A DNA stretch of 64,000 nucleotides from Candidatus Bathyarchaeota archaeon (GTDB lineage: Archaea > Thermoproteota > Bathyarchaeia > Bathyarchaeales > Bathycorpusculaceae), in assembly GCA_963715865.1 (NCBI GenBank), contig OY970280.1, forward strand, positions 1,760,001 to 1,824,000, written 5' to 3'. Below are positions 47,717 through 55,817 of the stretch, piece after piece; the first letter of the stretch is position 1; each line of letters begins with the position of its first letter. Position numbers and translations under genes: made by a program. Under the pieces are notes generated by a model that saw only the letters and a list, made by a program, of their open reading frames with translations, was not told where the DNA came from and searched no databases.

Positions 47717-47902
47717 TTAAGGTTTCAACGAAGAGAGAACAAGCCTTGTAGAGTTAACATCAACTTCTACGATCTTGCAGTTTTTGAATTCTTTGGCTTC
47801 GCCTAAAATATTCTTAACTGTCACGTTGTCTCCTTCGATTTTAGCGTAAATAACATCCTTGAATTGCACTTTTCCATTGAAGATTACGTTGAATTCACAC
47901 AT
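47717..47902 (-). CDS. CooT-family nickel-binding protein
   Basis: ATG at 47902: MCEFNV...KDVIYAKIEGDNVTVKNILGEAKEF...IVEVD; the Met-Cys-Glu N-terminus is typical of CooT. Confidence 0.8.
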   Translation of the reverse strand: MCEFNVIFNGKVQFKDVIYAKIEGDNVTVKNILGEAKEFKNCKIVEVDVNSTRLVLSSLKP

Positions 47903-48145
47903 AATGTTTTCACAGCTATGAAAAAAGTGATTCTGGGTTATAAGGGCTTTTATCAAAGACAACTAACTACTCACGGAAAAATAGTGCTCTTAAGAGTCTT
48001 TAGCCTCCTTATTTAAAAGCAAGCTACCATCTTATCTTCCAACCTCTATCTTCTACTCTTTCTAGGAGAGATTAGGCGTAGCATCGTTTTTTGGCATGTT
48101 AAATATTCACTATTAGCTGTAAACAACTAAAACAGACACCGTAAA

Positions 48146-48177
48146 CTTTTTATTTGTACAGCGCTGTACTTTTAAGG
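48146..48177 (+). promoter_or_regulatory. Promoter region of the ilv-leu operon with a perfect 14-bp palindrome (candidate operator)
   Basis: GTACAGCGCTGTAC at 48156-48169, flanked by two TATA-like boxes (TTTTTATT about 48147 and TTTTAAGG at 48170). Confidence 0.6.
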
Positions 48178-48197
48178 AACATGGAATTTCAAGAGGC

Positions 48198-48254
48198 ATG
48201 AAAATGAGGGATCGACACCTCAATAGCCGGGATCGTCGGGTACTTATTCTTTGA
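48198..48254 (+). CDS. Candidate ilv-leu leader peptide (MK)MRDRHLNSRDRRVLIL
   Basis: In-frame ATGs at 48198 and 48204 (GAGG 7 nt before the second). Ends GTA CTT ATT CTT TGA; lies 93 nt upstream of ilvB. Confidence 0.65.
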   Translation: MKMRDRHLNSRDRRVLIL

Positions 48255-48347
48255 TTTTCACAGGGAACCCTCTGAAACTGCCACTGAAAAAATTTTCAAA
48301 CCAAACTTCTCAAGACGAGAGTATAGTTCAAAAAGGAGAGCAATAAA

Positions 48348-50054
48348 ATGACCAAAATGTCTGGTGCACAAGCACTGTTAGAATCCCTTGAACGCCAAAA
48401 CGTGGACGTCATATTCGGCATCTTAGGCGGAGCAATACTGCCCGTTTACGATGCGTTATGGGGCAACAAGAAAATAAGACACATACTAAGCAGACATGAA
48501 CAAGGAGCAGCACACGCAGCCGAAGGCTATGCAAGAGCCAGCGGACGAGTAGGAGTGTGCATGGCAACTTCAGGACCAGGAGCCACAAACCTAGTCACAG
48601 GCATAGCAAACGCATACATGGATTCCTCACCAATAATAGCTTTAACAGGGCAAGTCCCAACGACAGGCGTTAACACTTCCTACATGATTGGCAGAGACGC
48701 TTTCCAAGAAGCAGACATCATCGGCATCACAACGCCAATTACCAAGCACAATTATCAACCGAGAACAGTCGCTGAAATCCCACTAATCGTTAACACCGCG
48801 TTCTACATAGCAACCACAGGCAGGCCAGGACCAGTCTTAATTGACTTGCCAAAAAACGTGCAGGCTGAAACCTCCGAAGTAGAATTCACAAACAAAATTG
48901 ATGCCCGAGGTTACAAACCCGTAATTGAGCCCGATTTAGCAAAAATCAGCGAAGCCGCTAAGTTGCTGGCAAAAGCTGAGAAACCAATCATACTGGCAGG
49001 CGGCGGAGTCATAATATCCAACGCGTCAGATGAACTTATGCAAATGTCAGATTTGCTGATGGCTCCTGTAGCTACGACGTTAATGGGCAAAGGCTCATTC
49101 CCTGAATGTCACCCCTTATCAGTTGGAGGCATCGGAATGCATGGAAATCCAGCGGCGAACAAGCTGATGGGTGAGGCTGATGTGTTGCTGGCTGTTGGAA
49201 CAAGATTCTCTGACCGTGCAACAGCAAACTTGGACACTTTCTGCCCAGACGCTAAAAAGATTCACATTGACATTGACGCTGCAGAAATTGGAAAAAACAT
49301 CGAAGTTGACGTGCCCATAGTCGGCGACGCCAAAACCTCTATGAGAATACTGCATGGTGCCTTGGCTAATAAACTGCACAAAAACGAAGGCAACGCCTGG
49401 ACAAAAAGAGTTAAAGAAGCCAAAGATCAACTAAGCCCATTATTAAAAGAAATGCCCAAAGACCTGTTACCAAAAGCGCTATTGATGGAGCTTAGAAAAC
49501 TGCTGCCTGAAAACACCATAGTCACCACAGAAGTCGGTCAAAACCAGATGTGGTCAGCTCTATACTTCCAAGCATTAAAGCCAAGAACATTCATTAGCTC
49601 AGGCGGGTTAGGAACAATGGGTTTCGGTTTCCCAGCAGCGATAGGAGCAAAAGTCGCCTGTCCAGATAGACCCGTCGTGGACATAGCTGGCGACGGCAGT
49701 TTCATAATGACCGAACAAGAACTCGCGTGCTCTGTAACAGAGAACATCCCTGTCACAGTTATCGTGCTGAACAATTCGGTGTTAGGCATGGTTGCACAGT
49801 GGCAAAGAATGCTCTATAAAGGCCGTTACATGGCAGTTAACTTGGGAAAAACACCTGACTTCGTTAAGCTGGCAGAGGCTTACGGAGCGCAAGGTTTCCG
49901 AGCAAGGTCAATGGAAGAGTTCCAAAAAGCCGTGAAAACAGCGCTAAAAAGTAAAGTTACAACTGTAATCGATGTGCCTATTGGCTCAGAAGAGGACGTT
50001 GTGCCCTTTGTGCCTCCAGGCTGCGGTTTACCACAACAGAGAGGTGACTACTAA
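48348..50054 (+). CDS. ilvB: Acetolactate synthase large subunit
   Basis: RHEQGAAHAAEGYAR, TSGPGATN, GGLGTMGFG and the ThDP motif GDGSF...LNN. Confidence 0.97.
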   Translation: MTKMSGAQALLESLERQNVDVIFGILGGAILPVYDALWGNKKIRHILSRHEQGAAHAAEGYARASGRVGVCMATSGPGATNLVTGIANAYMDSSPIIALTGQVPTTGVNTSYMIGRDAFQEADIIGITTPITKHNYQPRTVAEIPLIVNTAFYIATTGRPGPVLIDLPKNVQAETSEVEFTNKIDARGYKPVIEPDLAKISEAAKLLAKAEKPIILAGGGVIISNASDELMQMSDLLMAPVATTLMGKGSFPECHPLSVGGIGMHGNPAANKLMGEADVLLAVGTRFSDRATANLDTFCPDAKKIHIDIDAAEIGKNIEVDVPIVGDAKTSMRILHGALANKLHKNEGNAWTKRVKEAKDQLSPLLKEMPKDLLPKALLMELRKLLPENTIVTTEVGQNQMWSALYFQALKPRTFISSGGLGTMGFGFPAAIGAKVACPDRPVVDIAGDGSFIMTEQELACSVTENIPVTVIVLNNSVLGMVAQWQRMLYKGRYMAVNLGKTPDFVKLAEAYGAQGFRARSMEEFQKAVKTALKSKVTTVIDVPIGSEEDVVPFVPPGCGLPQQRGDY

Positions 50055-50567
50055 ATGGAAGTTGGAAAAACAAAAATAATCTCCGTACTTGTCGAAAATA
50101 AGCCAGGAGTACTTCACAGCGTAGCCAACCTGTTCCGAAGGAGAAACTTTAACATCGAAAGCATCACAGTCGGTCCTACCGAACAGAAAGACTTAGCACG
50201 CATGACAATAACAGTCAACGAGGATGAAAAAACAATCGACCAAGTCGTCAAGCAACTGGCAAAGCTCATCGATGTGATTAAAGTCGAGGAGCTAGAGCAT
50301 GGAAACTTTGTGATGCGAGAGCTAGCTTTGATAAAAGTTAGCGTACCAAGCCCCAAAGAACGCTCCGACATCATAAACTGCGTAGAAGTCTTCAGAGGCA
50401 GAGTCATAGACGTTTCAACCGACAGCTTAACCGTAGAAATCACAGGAACACCCGACAAAATAGACGCATTCCTAAACCTGATGAAAACGTCCGGCGTCAT
50501 TGAACTTGCAAGAACAGGCATAACCGCACTGGCTAGAGGAGCAAAATCAATAAGAATCGACGAATAA
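50055..50567 (+). CDS. ilvN: Acetolactate synthase small (regulatory) subunit
   Basis: VENKPGVL...FRRRNFNIESI, QLAKLIDV and ARTG ACT-type motifs. Confidence 0.97.
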   Translation: MEVGKTKIISVLVENKPGVLHSVANLFRRRNFNIESITVGPTEQKDLARMTITVNEDEKTIDQVVKQLAKLIDVIKVEELEHGNFVMRELALIKVSVPSPKERSDIINCVEVFRGRVIDVSTDSLTVEITGTPDKIDAFLNLMKTSGVIELARTGITALARGAKSIRIDE

Positions 50568-50671
50568 ACCGTCTCTACGGACGGAAACCCTTAACTTTCG
50601 GTTTCTCAAAATTGACAAACCTTCAAGCAGGTTGATTTGAAATAGTTAATTTGTAACAGAAGCGAAAAAAC

Positions 50672-51943
50672 ATGAACATAACAGAAAAAATCTTGGCTAA
50701 AGCATCAGGCAAAAAAACCGTGCACTCAGGAGAAATCGTGGATGCAAACGTAGACATGGTAATGGTGCATGATTTAACTGGACCTTTAGCCGTTGAAGCC
50801 TTCAAAAAAATAGGCGTAGAAAAAGTTTGGGATAACCAAAAAGTAGTGGTGATTCTGGACCACCAGGTACCGGCTGAGTCCGTTAAAGCTGCGGAACTGC
50901 ACAAGACCATGCGCCAATTCGCCAAAGACCAAAAACTACGTTTATACGATGTAGGCAAAGGCGGAATCTGCCACCAAGTCATGCCTGAAAAAGGGCATGT
51001 GGTTCCTGGAACAGTTATCGTAGGCGCTGATTCTCACACTTGCACTTACGGTGCCTTCGGCGCTTTCGCAACAGGAATAGGCTCAACTGAAGCAGCAGCG
51101 GTTTTTGCTACTGGAAAGATTTGGCTGAAGGTGCCTGAAGCGATTAAAGTAAACGTGACTGGGCAATTCCAAAAGTACGTTACACCAAAAGACCTAATCC
51201 TGTCAATAATCGGGCGGATAGGTGCTGATGGCGCAATATACAAAAGCGCCGAATTCACCGGTCCAACGATAAAAAGCATGAGCATGTCTGGAAGGATGAC
51301 GCTGTGCAATATGGCTGTGGAAATGGGCGCCAAAAATGGCATCATAGAACCAGATGAAACAACTCGCAAGTTCTTAGAAGGCAGAACCAGCAAGACACTG
51401 CCCAACTTTGATACATTGAAAAGTGATAAAGACGCAGTTTACGAACGGACAATGGAATTTGACGTGACAAGTTTAGAGCCACAAATTGCTTGCCCATCAT
51501 CAGTCGATAACGTTAAGCCAGTTTCAGAAGTAGGCAACGTTCCAATCGAACAAGCATTCATCGGCTCATGCACCAACGGCAGAATCGAAGATTTACGCTT
51601 AGCCGCCCAAGTCCTAAAGGGCAAACGCGTAAAAGACACTGTTAGGACACTGGTGATTCCAGCTTCCCAAGAAGTTTACCGACAAGCTTTGAACGAAGGT
51701 CTAATGGAAATCTTCACCGATGCAGGAGCAATGGTTTGCGGTTCAGCGTGCGGTCCATGCTTAGGCGGCCACATAGGATTATTGGCAGCAGGCGAGGTTT
51801 GCGTAAGTACTTCAAATAGGAACTTTATCGGAAGAATGGGCAGCACCCAAGCCAGCGTATACTTGGCTTCTCCAGCAACAGTTGCTGCTTCAGCAGTCAC
51901 AGGCAAAATCACTGACCCGAGAAAACTGGAGGCAAAAGCATGA
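50672..51943 (+). CDS. leuC: 3-isopropylmalate dehydratase large subunit (LeuC/HacA family)
   Basis: GADSHTCT, IGSCTNGR, CGPCLG and STSNRNFIGRMG. Confidence 0.93.
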   Translation: MNITEKILAKASGKKTVHSGEIVDANVDMVMVHDLTGPLAVEAFKKIGVEKVWDNQKVVVILDHQVPAESVKAAELHKTMRQFAKDQKLRLYDVGKGGICHQVMPEKGHVVPGTVIVGADSHTCTYGAFGAFATGIGSTEAAAVFATGKIWLKVPEAIKVNVTGQFQKYVTPKDLILSIIGRIGADGAIYKSAEFTGPTIKSMSMSGRMTLCNMAVEMGAKNGIIEPDETTRKFLEGRTSKTLPNFDTLKSDKDAVYERTMEFDVTSLEPQIACPSSVDNVKPVSEVGNVPIEQAFIGSCTNGRIEDLRLAAQVLKGKRVKDTVRTLVIPASQEVYRQALNEGLMEIFTDAGAMVCGSACGPCLGGHIGLLAAGEVCVSTSNRNFIGRMGSTQASVYLASPATVAASAVTGKITDPRKLEAKA

Positions 51944-52443
51944 ACATGAAAATCAAGGGCACCGCAATAAAATTCGGAAACAACATCGACACAGACGTTA
52001 TCTTGCCTGGAAAATACCTAATCATAGTTGACCCTTACGAGTTAGCAAAACATGCCCTAGAGAGCTTAGACCCAGCGTTTCCTGAGAAAGCAAAAAAAGG
52101 CGTAATCTTAGTAGGCGGCAAAAACTTCGGATGCGGCTCAAGCCGAGAACAAGCGCCTTTAGCCTTAAAGTATGCAGGCGTGAAATGCGTGTTAGCCGAA
52201 TCCTTCGCGCGCATCTTCTTCCGAAACGCCATAAACATCGGCTTACCAGTAATTGAGTGCAAAGGCATATCCGCCGCGGTTGAAACAGGCGACGAATTAG
52301 CTGTGGACTTTGAAGCTGGCAAGATAGAAAACGTTTCTAAAGGCAAAAGCTTTCAAGTGAACAAGCTTCCACCGTTTATCTTAGAGATATTGTCGGATGG
52401 AGGATTAATCGAAAACTTACGAAGGAGAATGAACAAAAAATGA
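51940..52443 (+). CDS. leuD: 3-isopropylmalate dehydratase small subunit
   Basis: NIDTDVILP, NFGCGSSREQA and SFARIFFRN. Confidence 0.93.
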   Translation: MNMKIKGTAIKFGNNIDTDVILPGKYLIIVDPYELAKHALESLDPAFPEKAKKGVILVGGKNFGCGSSREQAPLALKYAGVKCVLAESFARIFFRNAINIGLPVIECKGISAAVETGDELAVDFEAGKIENVSKGKSFQVNKLPPFILEILSDGGLIENLRRRMNKK

Positions 52444-53477
52444 CAGAGTACAAAATATCTCTCATTCCAGGTGACGGAATCGGACCAGAATTAACCGAAG
52501 CCACCCTGAAAGTTCTAGAATCAGCACAGAAAAAATTCGGGCTAAATCTGAAAATCATTGAGGCAGAAGCAGGCGACGCAACCTTAGCTAAAAGAGGCGC
52601 CGCTTTACCCGAAGACACCGTGCAAAAAATTAAGGACTCTCACGTTTGCTTAAAGGGACCTGTAGGCGAAAGTGCAGCCGATGTCATAGTGAAGTTACGT
52701 TTAATGTTTGATCTTTACGCTAATTTGCGTCCACTGAAGGCTTATCCTGCGGTTGCTGTGGCTAGGCCAGACATTGACATGATGTTTGTTAGGGAGAACA
52801 CTGAGGACGTTTACAAAGGCTTAGAATTCACCATAGGTAACGACACAACCTTATGCCTTAGAGTTATTACCCGAAGTAATTGTGAACGCATAGCCAAAAA
52901 AGCCTTCGAAATTGCACGCTTACGCAATGGCAAAAAGAAAGTAACCGCCATACACAAAGCCAACGTTATGCGCGTGACCGACGGCTTATTCGCAAGCATA
53001 TGCCGTGAAACAGCAAAACAGTACCCAGACATCGCTTTCAACGAGTTATATGTTGATGCAGCGTCGATGCGTCTAATAAAAGAGCCACAAGAATTCGACG
53101 TCCTGTGCACCTGCAACATGTTCGGCGACATCCTCTCAGACGAAGCAGCTCAACTAATTGGCGGATTAGGCATGGCTCCAGGCGCAAACATAGGTGACAA
53201 CTTTGCACTCTTCGAACCCATACACGGTTCAGCACCAAACAGGGCTGGAAAACACACGGCAAACCCAATCTCCATGATACTAAGCGCAAAAATGATGCTG
53301 GACTGGCTAGGCGAGAAATACAACGACAAGAAATGCACCAACGCTGGCAAAGCAATAGAAAACGGAGTAATACAAGCGTTACGTAACGGTCAAACTGTTC
53401 CAGACTGCGGCGGCAACACCACGACCGTGGGAATGGCAGAAGCCATTGCTGCAGCCATAACAGTGAAAACTGGTTGA
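52440..53477 (+). CDS. leuB: 3-isopropylmalate dehydrogenase
   Basis: PGDGIGPE, RENTED, HKANVM, NMFGDILSD and EPIHGSAP; operon context. Confidence 0.9.
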   Translation: MTEYKISLIPGDGIGPELTEATLKVLESAQKKFGLNLKIIEAEAGDATLAKRGAALPEDTVQKIKDSHVCLKGPVGESAADVIVKLRLMFDLYANLRPLKAYPAVAVARPDIDMMFVRENTEDVYKGLEFTIGNDTTLCLRVITRSNCERIAKKAFEIARLRNGKKKVTAIHKANVMRVTDGLFASICRETAKQYPDIAFNELYVDAASMRLIKEPQEFDVLCTCNMFGDILSDEAAQLIGGLGMAPGANIGDNFALFEPIHGSAPNRAGKHTANPISMILSAKMMLDWLGEKYNDKKCTNAGKAIENGVIQALRNGQTVPDCGGNTTTVGMAEAIAAAITVKTG

Positions 53478-53481
53478 AAAA

Positions 53482-55005
53482 ATGAACAATAAAAACTCAA
53501 AACGTATCAGAATTTTTGACACTACATTGAGAGATGGTGAACAAACACCTGGCGTATCTTTAACTGCAGAGGACAAGATTGAGATTGCACGTCAACTAAG
53601 CAAGCTAGGCGTTGACGTTATCGAAGCCGGTTTTCCAAGTTCTTCAGAGGGCGAGAAAAAAGTTGTTAGAGAAATCGCAAAAGCTGGTTTAGAACCGGAA
53701 ATCTGCGCTTTGTCACGTGCAACACAAGGCGATATTGATGCTGCAATCGACTGCGACGTTGACTTAATTCACGTGTTTATTCCCACTTCGCCTGTGCAAA
53801 TGAAGTATGCGGTAAACTTGACGCCTGAACAAGTGCTATCTTCTGCTGTAGAGTCGATTGAACGTGTAAAGAAACATGGCATTAAATGCGAGTTTTCACC
53901 AATGGATGCCACACGTTCAGAAATGCCCTTCCTAAAACAGGTTTGCCAAGCCGCGGAGAAAGCAGGCATGGACCGCCTAAACGTTCCAGACACCGTGGGC
54001 ATAATGATTCCGAAAACAACCATCAAGCTCATTGAAGAACTGAAAACCGTAGTTAACGTTCCCATAAGCATACATTGCCACGACGACTTCGGCATGGCAG
54101 TCGCAAACTCGCTGGCCGCTGTTGAAGCCGGCGCTGCTCAAGTGCACGTTGCCGTCAACGGCTTAGGCGAGAGAGCAGGAAACGCTTCGCTGGAAGAAGT
54201 GGTTATGGCGTTGCACATGATTTACAAGTACAAAACAGGCGTAAACACGAGATTATTATACAGCACTTCCCGAATGGTTGCTTCATTGACTGGCATAGCT
54301 GTGCAAGCTAACAAGGCGATTGTTGGCGAAAACGCTTTTGCCCATGAATCTGGAATTCATACTCGTGGCGTAACAGAGAAACCATTAACCTTTGAGCCAA
54401 TAAAGCCCGAGCTGGTTGGGCGCACAAGAAAACTTGTTGCTGGAAAACTAGCGGGAACACGTGGCATAAAAGCTGAACTGGAAGAGATAGACATTCACCC
54501 AACCGAAGAGCAACTGAAAGAAATCGTCCAACGCGTCAAAGACTTAGGCGACAAGGGCAAAATGGTGACGGATGCTGATTTGCTGGCGTTAACTTCTGCA
54601 GTCATAGGCGAAGTGATAGGGGAAGAAAAAATCGTTGACCTATGCGACTTAGCTGTTGTAACAGGCATCAAAGTGATCCCGACAGCGTCAGTCAGGCTGG
54701 TCTTAGATGGGAAAGAGTACATTGCGGCAGAAACAGGCGTGGGTCCAGTTGACGCTGTTCTGAAAGCAATACAAAAACTAACTAACAACCTAGAAAATAT
54801 ACGGCTCAGCGAATACCGTCTTGAAGCTATAACTGGCGGTTCAAACGCGGTAGCTGAAGTAGTTATAAAAGTTGAAGACGAAAAAGGCAACATTGTTTCA
54901 GCACGGGCAGCCAGAGAAGACATTGTTATGGCTAGCGTTGAAGCAATGATAAACGGTATAAACAAGCTCTTGATAAAGAATCGTAAGCAGGGAAACAAAA
55001 AGTGA
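53482..55005 (+). CDS. leuA: 2-isopropylmalate synthase (LeuA/CimA family)
   Basis: DTTLRDGEQ, HCHDDFG, GERAGNA and HESGIH, plus a C-terminal regulatory domain. Citramalate synthase is not excluded. Confidence 0.85.
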   Translation: MNNKNSKRIRIFDTTLRDGEQTPGVSLTAEDKIEIARQLSKLGVDVIEAGFPSSSEGEKKVVREIAKAGLEPEICALSRATQGDIDAAIDCDVDLIHVFIPTSPVQMKYAVNLTPEQVLSSAVESIERVKKHGIKCEFSPMDATRSEMPFLKQVCQAAEKAGMDRLNVPDTVGIMIPKTTIKLIEELKTVVNVPISIHCHDDFGMAVANSLAAVEAGAAQVHVAVNGLGERAGNASLEEVVMALHMIYKYKTGVNTRLLYSTSRMVASLTGIAVQANKAIVGENAFAHESGIHTRGVTEKPLTFEPIKPELVGRTRKLVAGKLAGTRGIKAELEEIDIHPTEEQLKEIVQRVKDLGDKGKMVTDADLLALTSAVIGEVIGEEKIVDLCDLAVVTGIKVIPTASVRLVLDGKEYIAAETGVGPVDAVLKAIQKLTNNLENIRLSEYRLEAITGGSNAVAEVVIKVEDEKGNIVSARAAREDIVMASVEAMINGINKLLIKNRKQGNKK

Positions 55006-55817
55006 AAACAGTAGCCTTCCAAGGCGAACGAGGCGCTTACAGCGAAAACGCCGTCTTCCAGTTCTTCGGGTTCGACACACAGGTTAAACCCTGTAAAGAC
55101 TTCAAGGACGTTTTTGACAGCGTTTGCACGCAGGAAACAAAGTTCGGCGTAGTGCCCGTCGAGAACAGCTTAGAGGGCAGCATCACCCAGAACTACGACC
55201 TCTTTCTCAAGTACGATTTGAAAGTATGCGCTGAAGTCATAGTGAAAGTTGAACACTGCCTCATCGCAAACCCCGGCACAGCGTTGGAAGACATCAAAGT
55301 TGTTTATTCGCATCCGCAGGCGCTGGGACAATGCCGAAGCTTCCTTGAGGAGTTCGGACGCGAACTCATATCAACATATGACACCGCAGGCAGCGTTAAA
55401 ATGATAAAAGAAAAAAGCCTAAAAAACGCAGCGGCAATCGCCAGCGAAAGAGCAGCAAACATCTACGGCATGCACATCCTCGCCAAAGACATCGCAGACA
55501 ACCCCGAAAACTACACCCGCTTCTTCGTCCTATCCACACAAGACTCGGCGCCAACAGGCAAAGACAAAACCAGCATAATCTTCTCAGCCAAACATGAGCC
55601 AGGCTCACTTTACCATGCGCTGGGAGAATTTGCTAAGCGAAACATTAACTTGACTAAAATCGAATCAAGACCTACAAAGAAGACGCCTTGGGAATACAAT
55701 TTTTGCCTCGATTTTGAAGGACATAGAACCGAACCTCGCTGCGCAGAAGCACTAAAAGCATTAGAGAAATATGCTATTTTCGTTAGGATATTGGGTTCTT
55801 ACCCTAAAGCCGCTTAA
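55002..55817 (+). CDS. pheA: Prephenate dehydratase
   Basis: QGERGAYS, PVENSLEG, SHPQALGQC, NYTRF and LTKIESRP. Confidence 0.96.
   Translation: MKTVAFQGERGAYSENAVFQFFGFDTQVKPCKDFKDVFDSVCTQETKFGVVPVENSLEGSITQNYDLFLKYDLKVCAEVIVKVEHCLIANPGTALEDIKVVYSHPQALGQCRSFLEEFGRELISTYDTAGSVKMIKEKSLKNAAAIASERAANIYGMHILAKDIADNPENYTRFFVLSTQDSAPTGKDKTSIIFSAKHEPGSLYHALGEFAKRNINLTKIESRPTKKTPWEYNFCLDFEGHRTEPRCAEALKALEKYAIFVRILGSYPKAA

Follow-up and report, generated by a model that had tools for sequence, protein, structure and literature searches.

A conserved upstream reading frame and its RNA before branched-chain amino acid operons of Bathyarchaeia

The ilv-leu operon of a Candidatus Bathyarchaeota archaeon is preceded by a short upstream open reading frame (uORF) which, together with the surrounding RNA, is conserved in well over a hundred uncultured Bathyarchaeia. 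This conservation marks the leader as a strong candidate for amino-acid control sensed by the ribosome, which would be the first case of its kind in archaea. An earlier sequence-only reading had proposed leader control on the grounds of the four terminal codons, Val-Leu-Ile-Leu (VLIL), and of alternative hairpins; of this proposal, a conserved and apparently translated leader ORF before a branched-chain operon stood, and the VLIL codons and the hairpins did not. Conserved instead are the start region, the GAGGGAU box and the identity of codon 6 as Leu or Val, joined in the genus of the window by the Val codon GUA at position 13. As an explanation we favor a conserved cis-regulatory leader whose translated uORF senses the supply of Leu or Val tRNA at codon 6, a reading that we judge to be about evenly poised between right and wrong. 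Amino-acid control by leader translation is a textbook mechanism in bacteria and, to our knowledge, has not been shown in archaea; the present leader is a concrete and widely conserved candidate, with a clear leucine/branched-chain regulon. It suggests an unusual sensor design, i.e., a single codon at a fixed distance from a box complementary to the anti-Shine-Dalgarno sequence, and adds a cis-regulatory element for Bathyarchaeia, a large uncultured class with hardly any known gene regulation. Literature searches found no description of the element.

The leader and its operon in the window

The window, i.e., the whole stretch of 64 kb that was analysed, carries the operon ilvB-ilvN-leuC-leuD-leuB-leuA-pheA at 48348-55817 (plus strand, as are all leader features below), each gene being named by NCBIfam above the curated cut-off. 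Six of these genes had been listed before as ilvBN-leuCDBA and are confirmed; pheA had not been listed. The first gene, ilvB, comprises 568 codons, with its Shine-Dalgarno sequence (SD) GGAGAG at 48335-48340 (48335-48350 including the start codon). The last, pheA (prephenate dehydratase, 55002-55817), overlaps the leuA stop; in other lineages Phe codons are frequent at position 5 of the uORF, which could, but need not, be connected with pheA. Upstream, at 47717-47962 on the minus strand, lies a small CooT-like gene (35 bits to the CO dehydrogenase accessory protein family), which diverges from the operon and has a 236-nt promoter region in common with it, so that 47963-48347 represents a promoter-plus-leader region. 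Within it, a BRE/TATA-like archaeal promoter, CCGTAAAC followed by TTTTTATTT, occupies 48139-48155, about 50 nt 5' of the uORF; it is near-identical in 22 same-genus ilvB upstream regions, and other genera show a TTTTTAA/TTTTTAT box at a comparable distance. From the usual TATA-to-start spacing, transcription is predicted to start at about 48175-48180. At the gathering score, no Rfam family was found in the 64-kb window, known metabolite riboswitch classes (Rfam 15) included, nor were tRNA genes, and a permissive Rfam scan of 48050-48400 (E up to 10) returned two noise matches only (E = 3.3 and 5.2).

The uORF itself, 16 codons plus stop at 48204-48254, is one of 134 comparable leaders. It encodes (MK)MRDRHLNSRDRRVLIL and ends with TGA at 48252-48254, 93 nt before the ilvB ATG (48348). 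A second in-frame ATG at 48198, limited to the window's genome and a few others, would extend it to 18 codons. The sequence thus bears out the 16-18 codon ORF described before, and its recurrence at the same place in each of the relatives examined takes it beyond chance. Its SD, AGAGG (48192-48196), lies 7 nt 5' of the conserved ATG and pairs with CCTCT at 48269-48273; the cells of this helix are standard pairs in 96% of cases in alignment A1.

Two modules follow the start codon. Module 1 (48206-48221), built from columns invariant in A1, consists of GAGGGAT, two codons and the Leu codon 6, CTC (48219-48221), the third base of codon 5 being C or U without exception. Its GAGG (48206-48209) and CCTC (48218-48221) could form a 4-bp hairpin. 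Part of it, GAGGGATC, is complementary to the 16S rRNA 3' tail (3' end in this genome GGATCACCTCCT); GAGGGAUC of the leader matches the tail sequence GGAUCACCUCCU, again that of the window's genome, and the complementarity of GAGGGAU includes one bulged A. Module 2 (48227-48242) consists of (C/T)GGGAT, two codons and the Val codon 13, GTA (48240-48242), which is GTA in 81/81 of the 16-codon uORFs; in other families this type of module is placed first, so that Val becomes codon 6. A variable U-rich tail (48243-48251, codons 14-16, one of 35 distinct tails in the genus) encodes Leu-Ile-Leu here and completes, with Val13, the VLIL of the earlier reading.

Beyond the stop codon, a post-stop element at 48256-48278 combines a CCCAG-like strand with the anti-SD box CCCTCT, whose CCTCT is the partner of the uORF SD; in the window's genome the same stretch could form the local hairpin TTTCA-C-AGG-GAAC-CCT-C-TGAAA as an alternative. 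At 48280-48296 a GCCAC box, recognized by RNAalifold, is followed by an A-run and an oligo-U tract, the latter only TTTT here. In most relatives the partner of this box is a GUGG close to the 5' end of the leader (83-84% paired, few double changes). Between the leader and the ilvB SD lies the box AGACGAGAGTATAG (48313-48326), conserved across the genus in A1 and complementary to the UCGUC of both modules.

Conservation of the leader

All genomes compared are those of uncultured organisms, many of them close relatives; since related sequences are not independent, the leader counts that follow overstate the support. Within the genus, retrieval based on IlvB found the same leader upstream of ilvB in 22/22 genomes. 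When one genome from each prokaryote species was scanned with the pattern, 98 loci were obtained, all in metagenome-assembled genomes of Candidatus Bathyarchaeia/Bathyarchaeota (some labelled Thermoproteota or Nitrososphaerota by their depositors, several Ca. Bathycorpusculum), with an ilvB start 123-185 nt downstream in 94; among the remaining four, the sequence ended too early in two and ilvB was absent in two. No second copy of the element was found in the window's own genome.

About 40 consecutive bases of the leader are near-invariant across 88 species. In the genus, the consensus peptide of the uORF is Met-Arg-Asp-(Arg/Cys)-His-Leu-(Asn/His/Asp)-Ser-(Trp/Arg)-(Asp/Asn)-Arg-(Arg/Trp)-Val, usually followed by three variable codons and a stop at a fixed position (TAA 54, TGA 26, TAG 1). 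Codons 1-13 are nearly without third-position change in genomes whose IlvB is just 72-93% identical to that of the window, and the changes that do occur are mostly first-position C/U or G/A exchanges that alter the residue (W/R, R/C, D/N). This combination argues for selection on the bases, not on the peptide, in codons 1-13. The tail, on the other hand, is the least conserved part of the uORF: its 35 distinct 9-nt versions encode LIL, QLF, QIL, FIL, HFY, PRN and others. When the ilvB upstream regions of relatives were aligned, as the sequence-only reading had advised, the uORF was found to be conserved and its terminal Val/Leu/Ile codons were not, codons 14-16 varying within the genus and being absent from other genera. 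Furthermore, Ile, Leu and Val account for a fraction of 0.50 of the tail codons in frame, and reading these bases in frame +2 gives 0.51, so that U-richness explains the tail as well as codon selection would, and VLIL is not upheld as a feature.

Three loci deserve mention in their own right. In L088 (CAVYRC010000008.1), a one-base insertion in the uORF tail brings the frames of uORF and ilvB into register, so that 130 codons can be read without interruption; the fusion is either genuine or the product of an assembly error. One same-genus assembly (G142:C10:153-182) carries a second copy of the motif at a contig end; with its GTG start and CGCC variant this copy is of the type of another genus, probably because the bin is contaminated. 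In G158, a second leader copy precedes a second ilvB, probably owing to strain heterogeneity.

Overall, a short uORF of 6-23 codons starting RUG-AGG-GAU was found in 134 leaders from two orders, before the first gene of ilv/leu operons (ilvB, leuA-ilvB, leuCDB, leuA and, in one genome, leuS). An SD of the form GAGG/GGAGG stands 7-9 nt 5' of the start in 126/134 of them; the start codon is ATG in 103 and GTG in 31, and all three stop codons occur. The shortest uORF is MRDRFL followed by a stop, i.e., six codons. IlvB is present in 190/301 genomes of the order, and for an unbiased set the ilvB upstream regions of 40 genomes of other genera or families were picked by IlvB homology only. In 35/40 of these the arrangement SD, 7-9 nt, AUG/GUG, AGG-GAU was found, so that the start is AUG or GUG in 35/35 leaders retrieved in this way. 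In the five exceptions, a 513-codon isopropylmalate synthase gene (leuA) lies directly upstream of ilvB, and in the two exception lineages examined (L181 and L183, family f7, genus g16) the motif stands before leuA and overlaps its start. Here, at L181:10278-10400 and L183:10067-10190, an 18-codon uORF overlaps the isopropylmalate synthase start in a different frame; the sole possible start of that gene (AUG or UUG) comes 1 nt after a GAGAGG/GAGGGA box, whose spacing is better for an internal seven-codon mini-ORF starting MGDRF. This arrangement suggests translational coupling or competition between starts.

Codon 6 is Leu (81) or Val (10) in 91/91 distinct peptides. In unbiased leaders (35 from the other genera or families and five from the same genus) it is Leu or Val in 40/40, compared to about 17% expected from codon usage. 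Synonymous variants occur at this codon (CUC/CUU/CUA, GUA/GUU) and at Arg4 (CGU/CGC/AGA). Arg2, on the other hand, is AGG without exception and GAC is not used for Asp3, from which we conclude that there is selection on the RNA, while start, frame and stop are kept as well. The uORFs show no enrichment in branched-chain codons: Ile, Leu and Val make up 24% of the 91 distinct peptides, which equals the proteome background, and Arg accounts for 24% of residues compared to 4% in the proteome.

Across families the leader can be described by two modules: X, with GAGGGAU or a similar purine box, CGN, NNY and then CUC (Leu) or AUY (Ile); and Y, with the same kind of box, two codons and GUA/GUU (Val). 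Every module thus has a similar purine box 6 nt before a Leu, Val or Ile codon. Layouts comprise X alone, X before Y (the window's genus) and Y before X; spacers measure 6 to 21 nt, and the modules share one frame in all families despite the differing order and spacers. A class-wide pattern scan matched in 83/401 genomes; the reversed-pattern control gave four matches in total. Pattern matches in families f21, f23 and f24 all fell in protein-coding sequence, most at the starts of long ORFs, and were taken as chance; a loose pattern in f7 genomes gave mostly noise, with one conserved match inside a gene that, judged from sequence only, resembles Ile-tRNA synthetase.

Further copies precede other genes of the pathway. 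Family f7 has a second one, with an eight-codon uORF starting MRDRFL, about 140 nt upstream of leuC-leuD-leuB, and in one genus of a different order an 11-codon version stands upstream of leuA. In the same genus, one 98%-complete genome carries a copy also before the archaeal leucyl-tRNA synthetase gene, leuS (1220 bits compared to a cut-off of 677). The sister genome G351 lacks the motif before leuS, so that the link to leuS is a single case from one metagenome-assembled genome; in G395, leuS is absent from the 66%-complete assembly. The distribution over ilvB, leuA, leuC and one leuS fits amino-acid-specific control. In addition, L146 (G139, genus g27) has a second ATGAGGGA, which precedes the leader copy at its ilvB by about 100 nt.

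RNA structure and folding tests

As a whole, the 181-nt leader does not fold more stably than dinucleotide shuffles of itself (z = -0.01; 95/200 shuffles as good). RNAalifold nevertheless proposes four nested helices for the genus alignment: GUGG/CCAC; the uORF SD AGAGG with the post-stop CCUCU; GAGG/CCUC within codons 1-6; and CUGGG/CCCAG in the second half of the uORF. A1 is compatible with this pairing, as the 18 helix pairs are standard in 93.9% of cells, compared to 37-58% with slid partners, and cells with double changes number 15 versus 7.0 in shuffles (0/500 shuffles as high). Variation is scarce, however, and what speaks for the structure is mainly conservation: the helix CUGG(G/A)/(C/U)CCAG shows one true compensatory pair (GC 67, AU 10, GU 10), and the CUGGG/CCCAG helix of the window contains two mismatches. 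Other lineages pair the region of the uORF SD with a downstream box of their own (CGGAGGC/GCCUCCG, UCACGGAGGC/GCCGCCGUGA, AGAGGYU/AGCCUCU, GCAGCU/AGCUGC). In 22/57 leaders, this SD-to-downstream duplex exceeds that of shuffles in strength (z < -1.64); an SD/anti-SD helix was detectable in many lineages but not in all.

The hairpins proposed earlier fared less well. The letters of the post-stop hairpin are present at 48256-48278, in a leader whose fold does not surpass shuffles. Those of the TGAAAA/TTTTCA pair (about 48285-48298) are likewise present, and the pair is not kept in relatives (A1). The same holds for CTTCTC (48306-48311) as a partner of either GAGAG (48317-48321) or the ilvB SD, alternative hairpins that are not conserved. 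Folding the leader with and without ribosome occlusion, another step that had been proposed, gave a thermodynamically predicted unpaired probability of the ilvB SD, over 87 leaders, of 0.42 when free and of 0.40, 0.41 and 0.43 with a uORF ribosome (placed at codon 6, codon 13 or the stop), i.e., predicted access is unchanged, and an SD-sequestration switch for ilvB was rejected. No clear pair of competing terminator and antiterminator was identified. T tracts of five or more between uORF and ilvB, on the other hand, occur in 42/89 genus leaders compared to 10% in shuffles, mostly 50-60 nt upstream of the ilvB ATG; the window has only TTTT.

Two further candidates were rejected. A long-range pairing UCGUC/GACGA (CG 63, UA 11, CA 11) was not accepted because C-A mismatches are as many as U-A switches. 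A C/D-box or K-turn, considered from AUGA... and CUGA, fails as CUGA is CUAA in most relatives, and the sole snoRNA match was opposite-strand noise.

Proposed mechanism, rivals and known systems

A translated leader is favored because of the canonical start region, the strict AUG/GUG, the preserved frame, the fixed Leu/Val codon and the set of leu/ilv genes with one leuS; translation of the uORF is inferred from these features, and the events set out below are proposed. A ribosome would initiate at the canonical SD and AUG/GUG and then reach the Leu or Val codon 6, with later modules supplying further Leu, Val or Ile codons, such as Val13 in the window's genome. The purine box 6 nt before each sensor codon (GAGGGAU, GGAGGAAU, GGGGGAU or UGGGAU), complementary to the 16S 3' tail, may tether the elongating ribosome such that decoding of the sensor codon becomes rate-limiting; judging from the geometry, pairing of the box with the anti-SD would, with the usual SD spacing, bring that codon into or beside the decoding site. 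In this way, the occupancy of the leader by ribosomes would reflect how much charged Leu/Val tRNA is available. While it waits, a ribosome would cover the SD and start of the uORF, so that this SD could not pair with the downstream CCUC-type box; in good supply, the ribosome would depart, the leader would close on itself and operon expression would drop. Transcription and translation are coupled in archaea, and oligo-U tracts are archaeal termination signals. The output would most likely be termination at the oligo-U tract before ilvB and, less likely, lower translation or RNA stability. That the leader is the first ribosome-dependent amino-acid attenuator in Archaea, with repeatable modules, a single 'hungry' codon, sequestration of its own start and oligo-U termination, is a more tentative proposition, which we hold to be somewhat less probable than its converse.

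Several observations weigh against the favored explanation. Classical attenuators carry runs of regulatory codons, and here there are only one or two per leader, with Ile, Leu and Val at background frequency. Moreover, CUC doubles as the 3' strand of the GAGG hairpin, and its constancy could be due to RNA structure alone. The fold no more stable than shuffles, the unchanged ilvB SD access upon occlusion, the absence of a clear terminator/antiterminator pair, the SD/anti-SD helix that some lineages lack and the single case of leuS count against it as well.

The main rival is a riboswitch-like RNA whose invariant bases and helices would bind leucine, tRNA-Leu or a protein, with GAGGGAU, the repeated GAUCGU, AAUAG and GGGUAC as the binding site and the frame being incidental or helping to unfold the RNA. 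The near-invariant stretch in 88 species, with almost no third-position change at the IlvB divergence given above, is what such an RNA would show; the tolerated W/R, R/C and D/N changes, being C/U or G/A, keep wobble pairing, the nested helices agree with the alignment, and biosynthesis genes joined by one aminoacyl-tRNA synthetase resemble a T-box regulon. Nevertheless, the core common to all lineages, from the SD to codon 6, is just the SD plus 18 nt, about the length covered by an initiating ribosome and too small for a usual aptamer. Leaders of the minimal type comprise six codons and resemble one another in little else; where modules are rearranged, the start codon, the frame and the stops persist; and covariation is weak, with a fold stability equal to that of shuffles. 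Rfam offered no match even at E = 10, and no conserved UGGN for a tRNA 3' end was seen in A1. We consider a riboswitch-like RNA rather unlikely; were it correct, the leader would represent a novel class of RNA linked to leucine metabolism, and the finding would be equally new.

Arrest by the nascent peptide, in which Met-Arg-Asp-Arg would stall the ribosome from within the tunnel in response to a free amino acid, as for TnaC or the fungal arginine attenuator peptide, draws on the occurrence of Met-Arg-Asp in nearly all leaders (Glu replaces Asp in two), on the excess of Arg and on the synonymous variation of some Arg4 and Leu6 codons. It is improbable in view of the invariant AGG of Arg2 and the absence of GAC at Asp3, which point to the bases and not the residues, and of the freedom at position 4 (R/C/H/S/N/I) and position 5 (H/F/Y/I/V/T/R/W); moreover, the peptides of some leaders are only six residues long, a short length for sensing in the tunnel.

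We give equally little credence to the original model, in which stalling at the terminal VLIL codons would switch between the post-stop hairpins and the CTTCTC/GAGAG/SD pairings and thereby control read-through or ilvB initiation. Position 15 is I/F/L/V in 34/35 and position 16 L/F in 26/35 of the distinct genus tails, LIL is the commonest tail (28/81), and the small AGG/CCU hairpin is kept with five compensatory A-U cases. The tail is absent or different, however, outside part of one genus, the +2 frame yields equal Ile/Leu/Val content, the TGAAAA/TTTTCA pair is not conserved, and occlusion of the stop region leaves SD access unaltered. A DNA operator, i.e., the direct repeat GGGATCGTC binding a factor that blocks RNA polymerase downstream of the promoter, is highly improbable: the window's genus does have two near-identical 9-bp repeats about two helical turns apart (22 bp spacing), but many lineages have a single module only, and constant strand and distance to the SD and start, an in-frame stop thereafter and a variation biased to changes that preserve RNA wobble pairs are unexpected for a protein-binding DNA site.

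For the translated leader, then, the bacterial ilv/leu leader-peptide attenuators (E. coli ilvBN, ilvGMEDA and leu; Corynebacterium ilvB-II) are the nearest functional analogues. With these it has in common a short uORF with its own ribosome-binding site 5' of ilvB/leu, a conserved start and in-frame stop, codons for pathway products in the uORF, and RNA pairing that overlaps the uORF. The differences comprise the archaeal host, the lack of sequence relation, the single fixed Leu/Val position at codon 6 instead of a regulatory codon run, and the invariance of the first nine bases at the level of the RNA, together with their complementarity to the 16S tail. Furthermore, no hairpin-plus-U-run terminator with a competing antiterminator was found, and the only recurrent long-range helix sequesters the SD of the uORF itself. 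The Corynebacterium ilvB-II leader was first taken as an RNA motif and later recognised as a uORF attenuator (PMC10272879). In the same manner, the archaeal leader resembles a conserved RNA motif at first sight and proves to carry a uORF.

Leu (CUC) T-boxes of Firmicutes are similar in their association with the ilvB-leu operon, leu genes and (here in one genome) leuS, and in the conserved Leu codon CUC. In the archaeal leader, in contrast, CUC belongs to an apparently translated frame that follows an SD and a start codon, the common core is only about 30 nt, and a T-box riboswitch was rejected as there is neither an Rfam match nor a Stem I specifier loop nor a UGGN bulge for the tRNA 3' end. 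The element thus differs from leader-peptide attenuators and T-boxes in what defines them: it shows no codon enrichment, no T-box features and no match in Rfam, and no clear terminator/antiterminator pair was identified.

Translational attenuation leaders (ermC, cat, cmlA) also have a tiny leader ORF (6-19 codons), on which a stalled ribosome is thought to remodel a pairing that involves an SD. They sequester the SD of the downstream gene, whereas here the uORF's own SD pairs and the ilvB SD is not freed in silico; the proposed signal is tRNA supply, not an antibiotic. Finally, the programmed frameshift sites of prfB and dnaX place a purine box complementary to the 16S tail a few bases 5' of a specific codon inside an ORF. 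The leader shows no evidence of frameshifting and its spacing differs (6 nt from box to codon); at the prfB site, a Leu codon is followed by a stop, as in the six-codon leaders.
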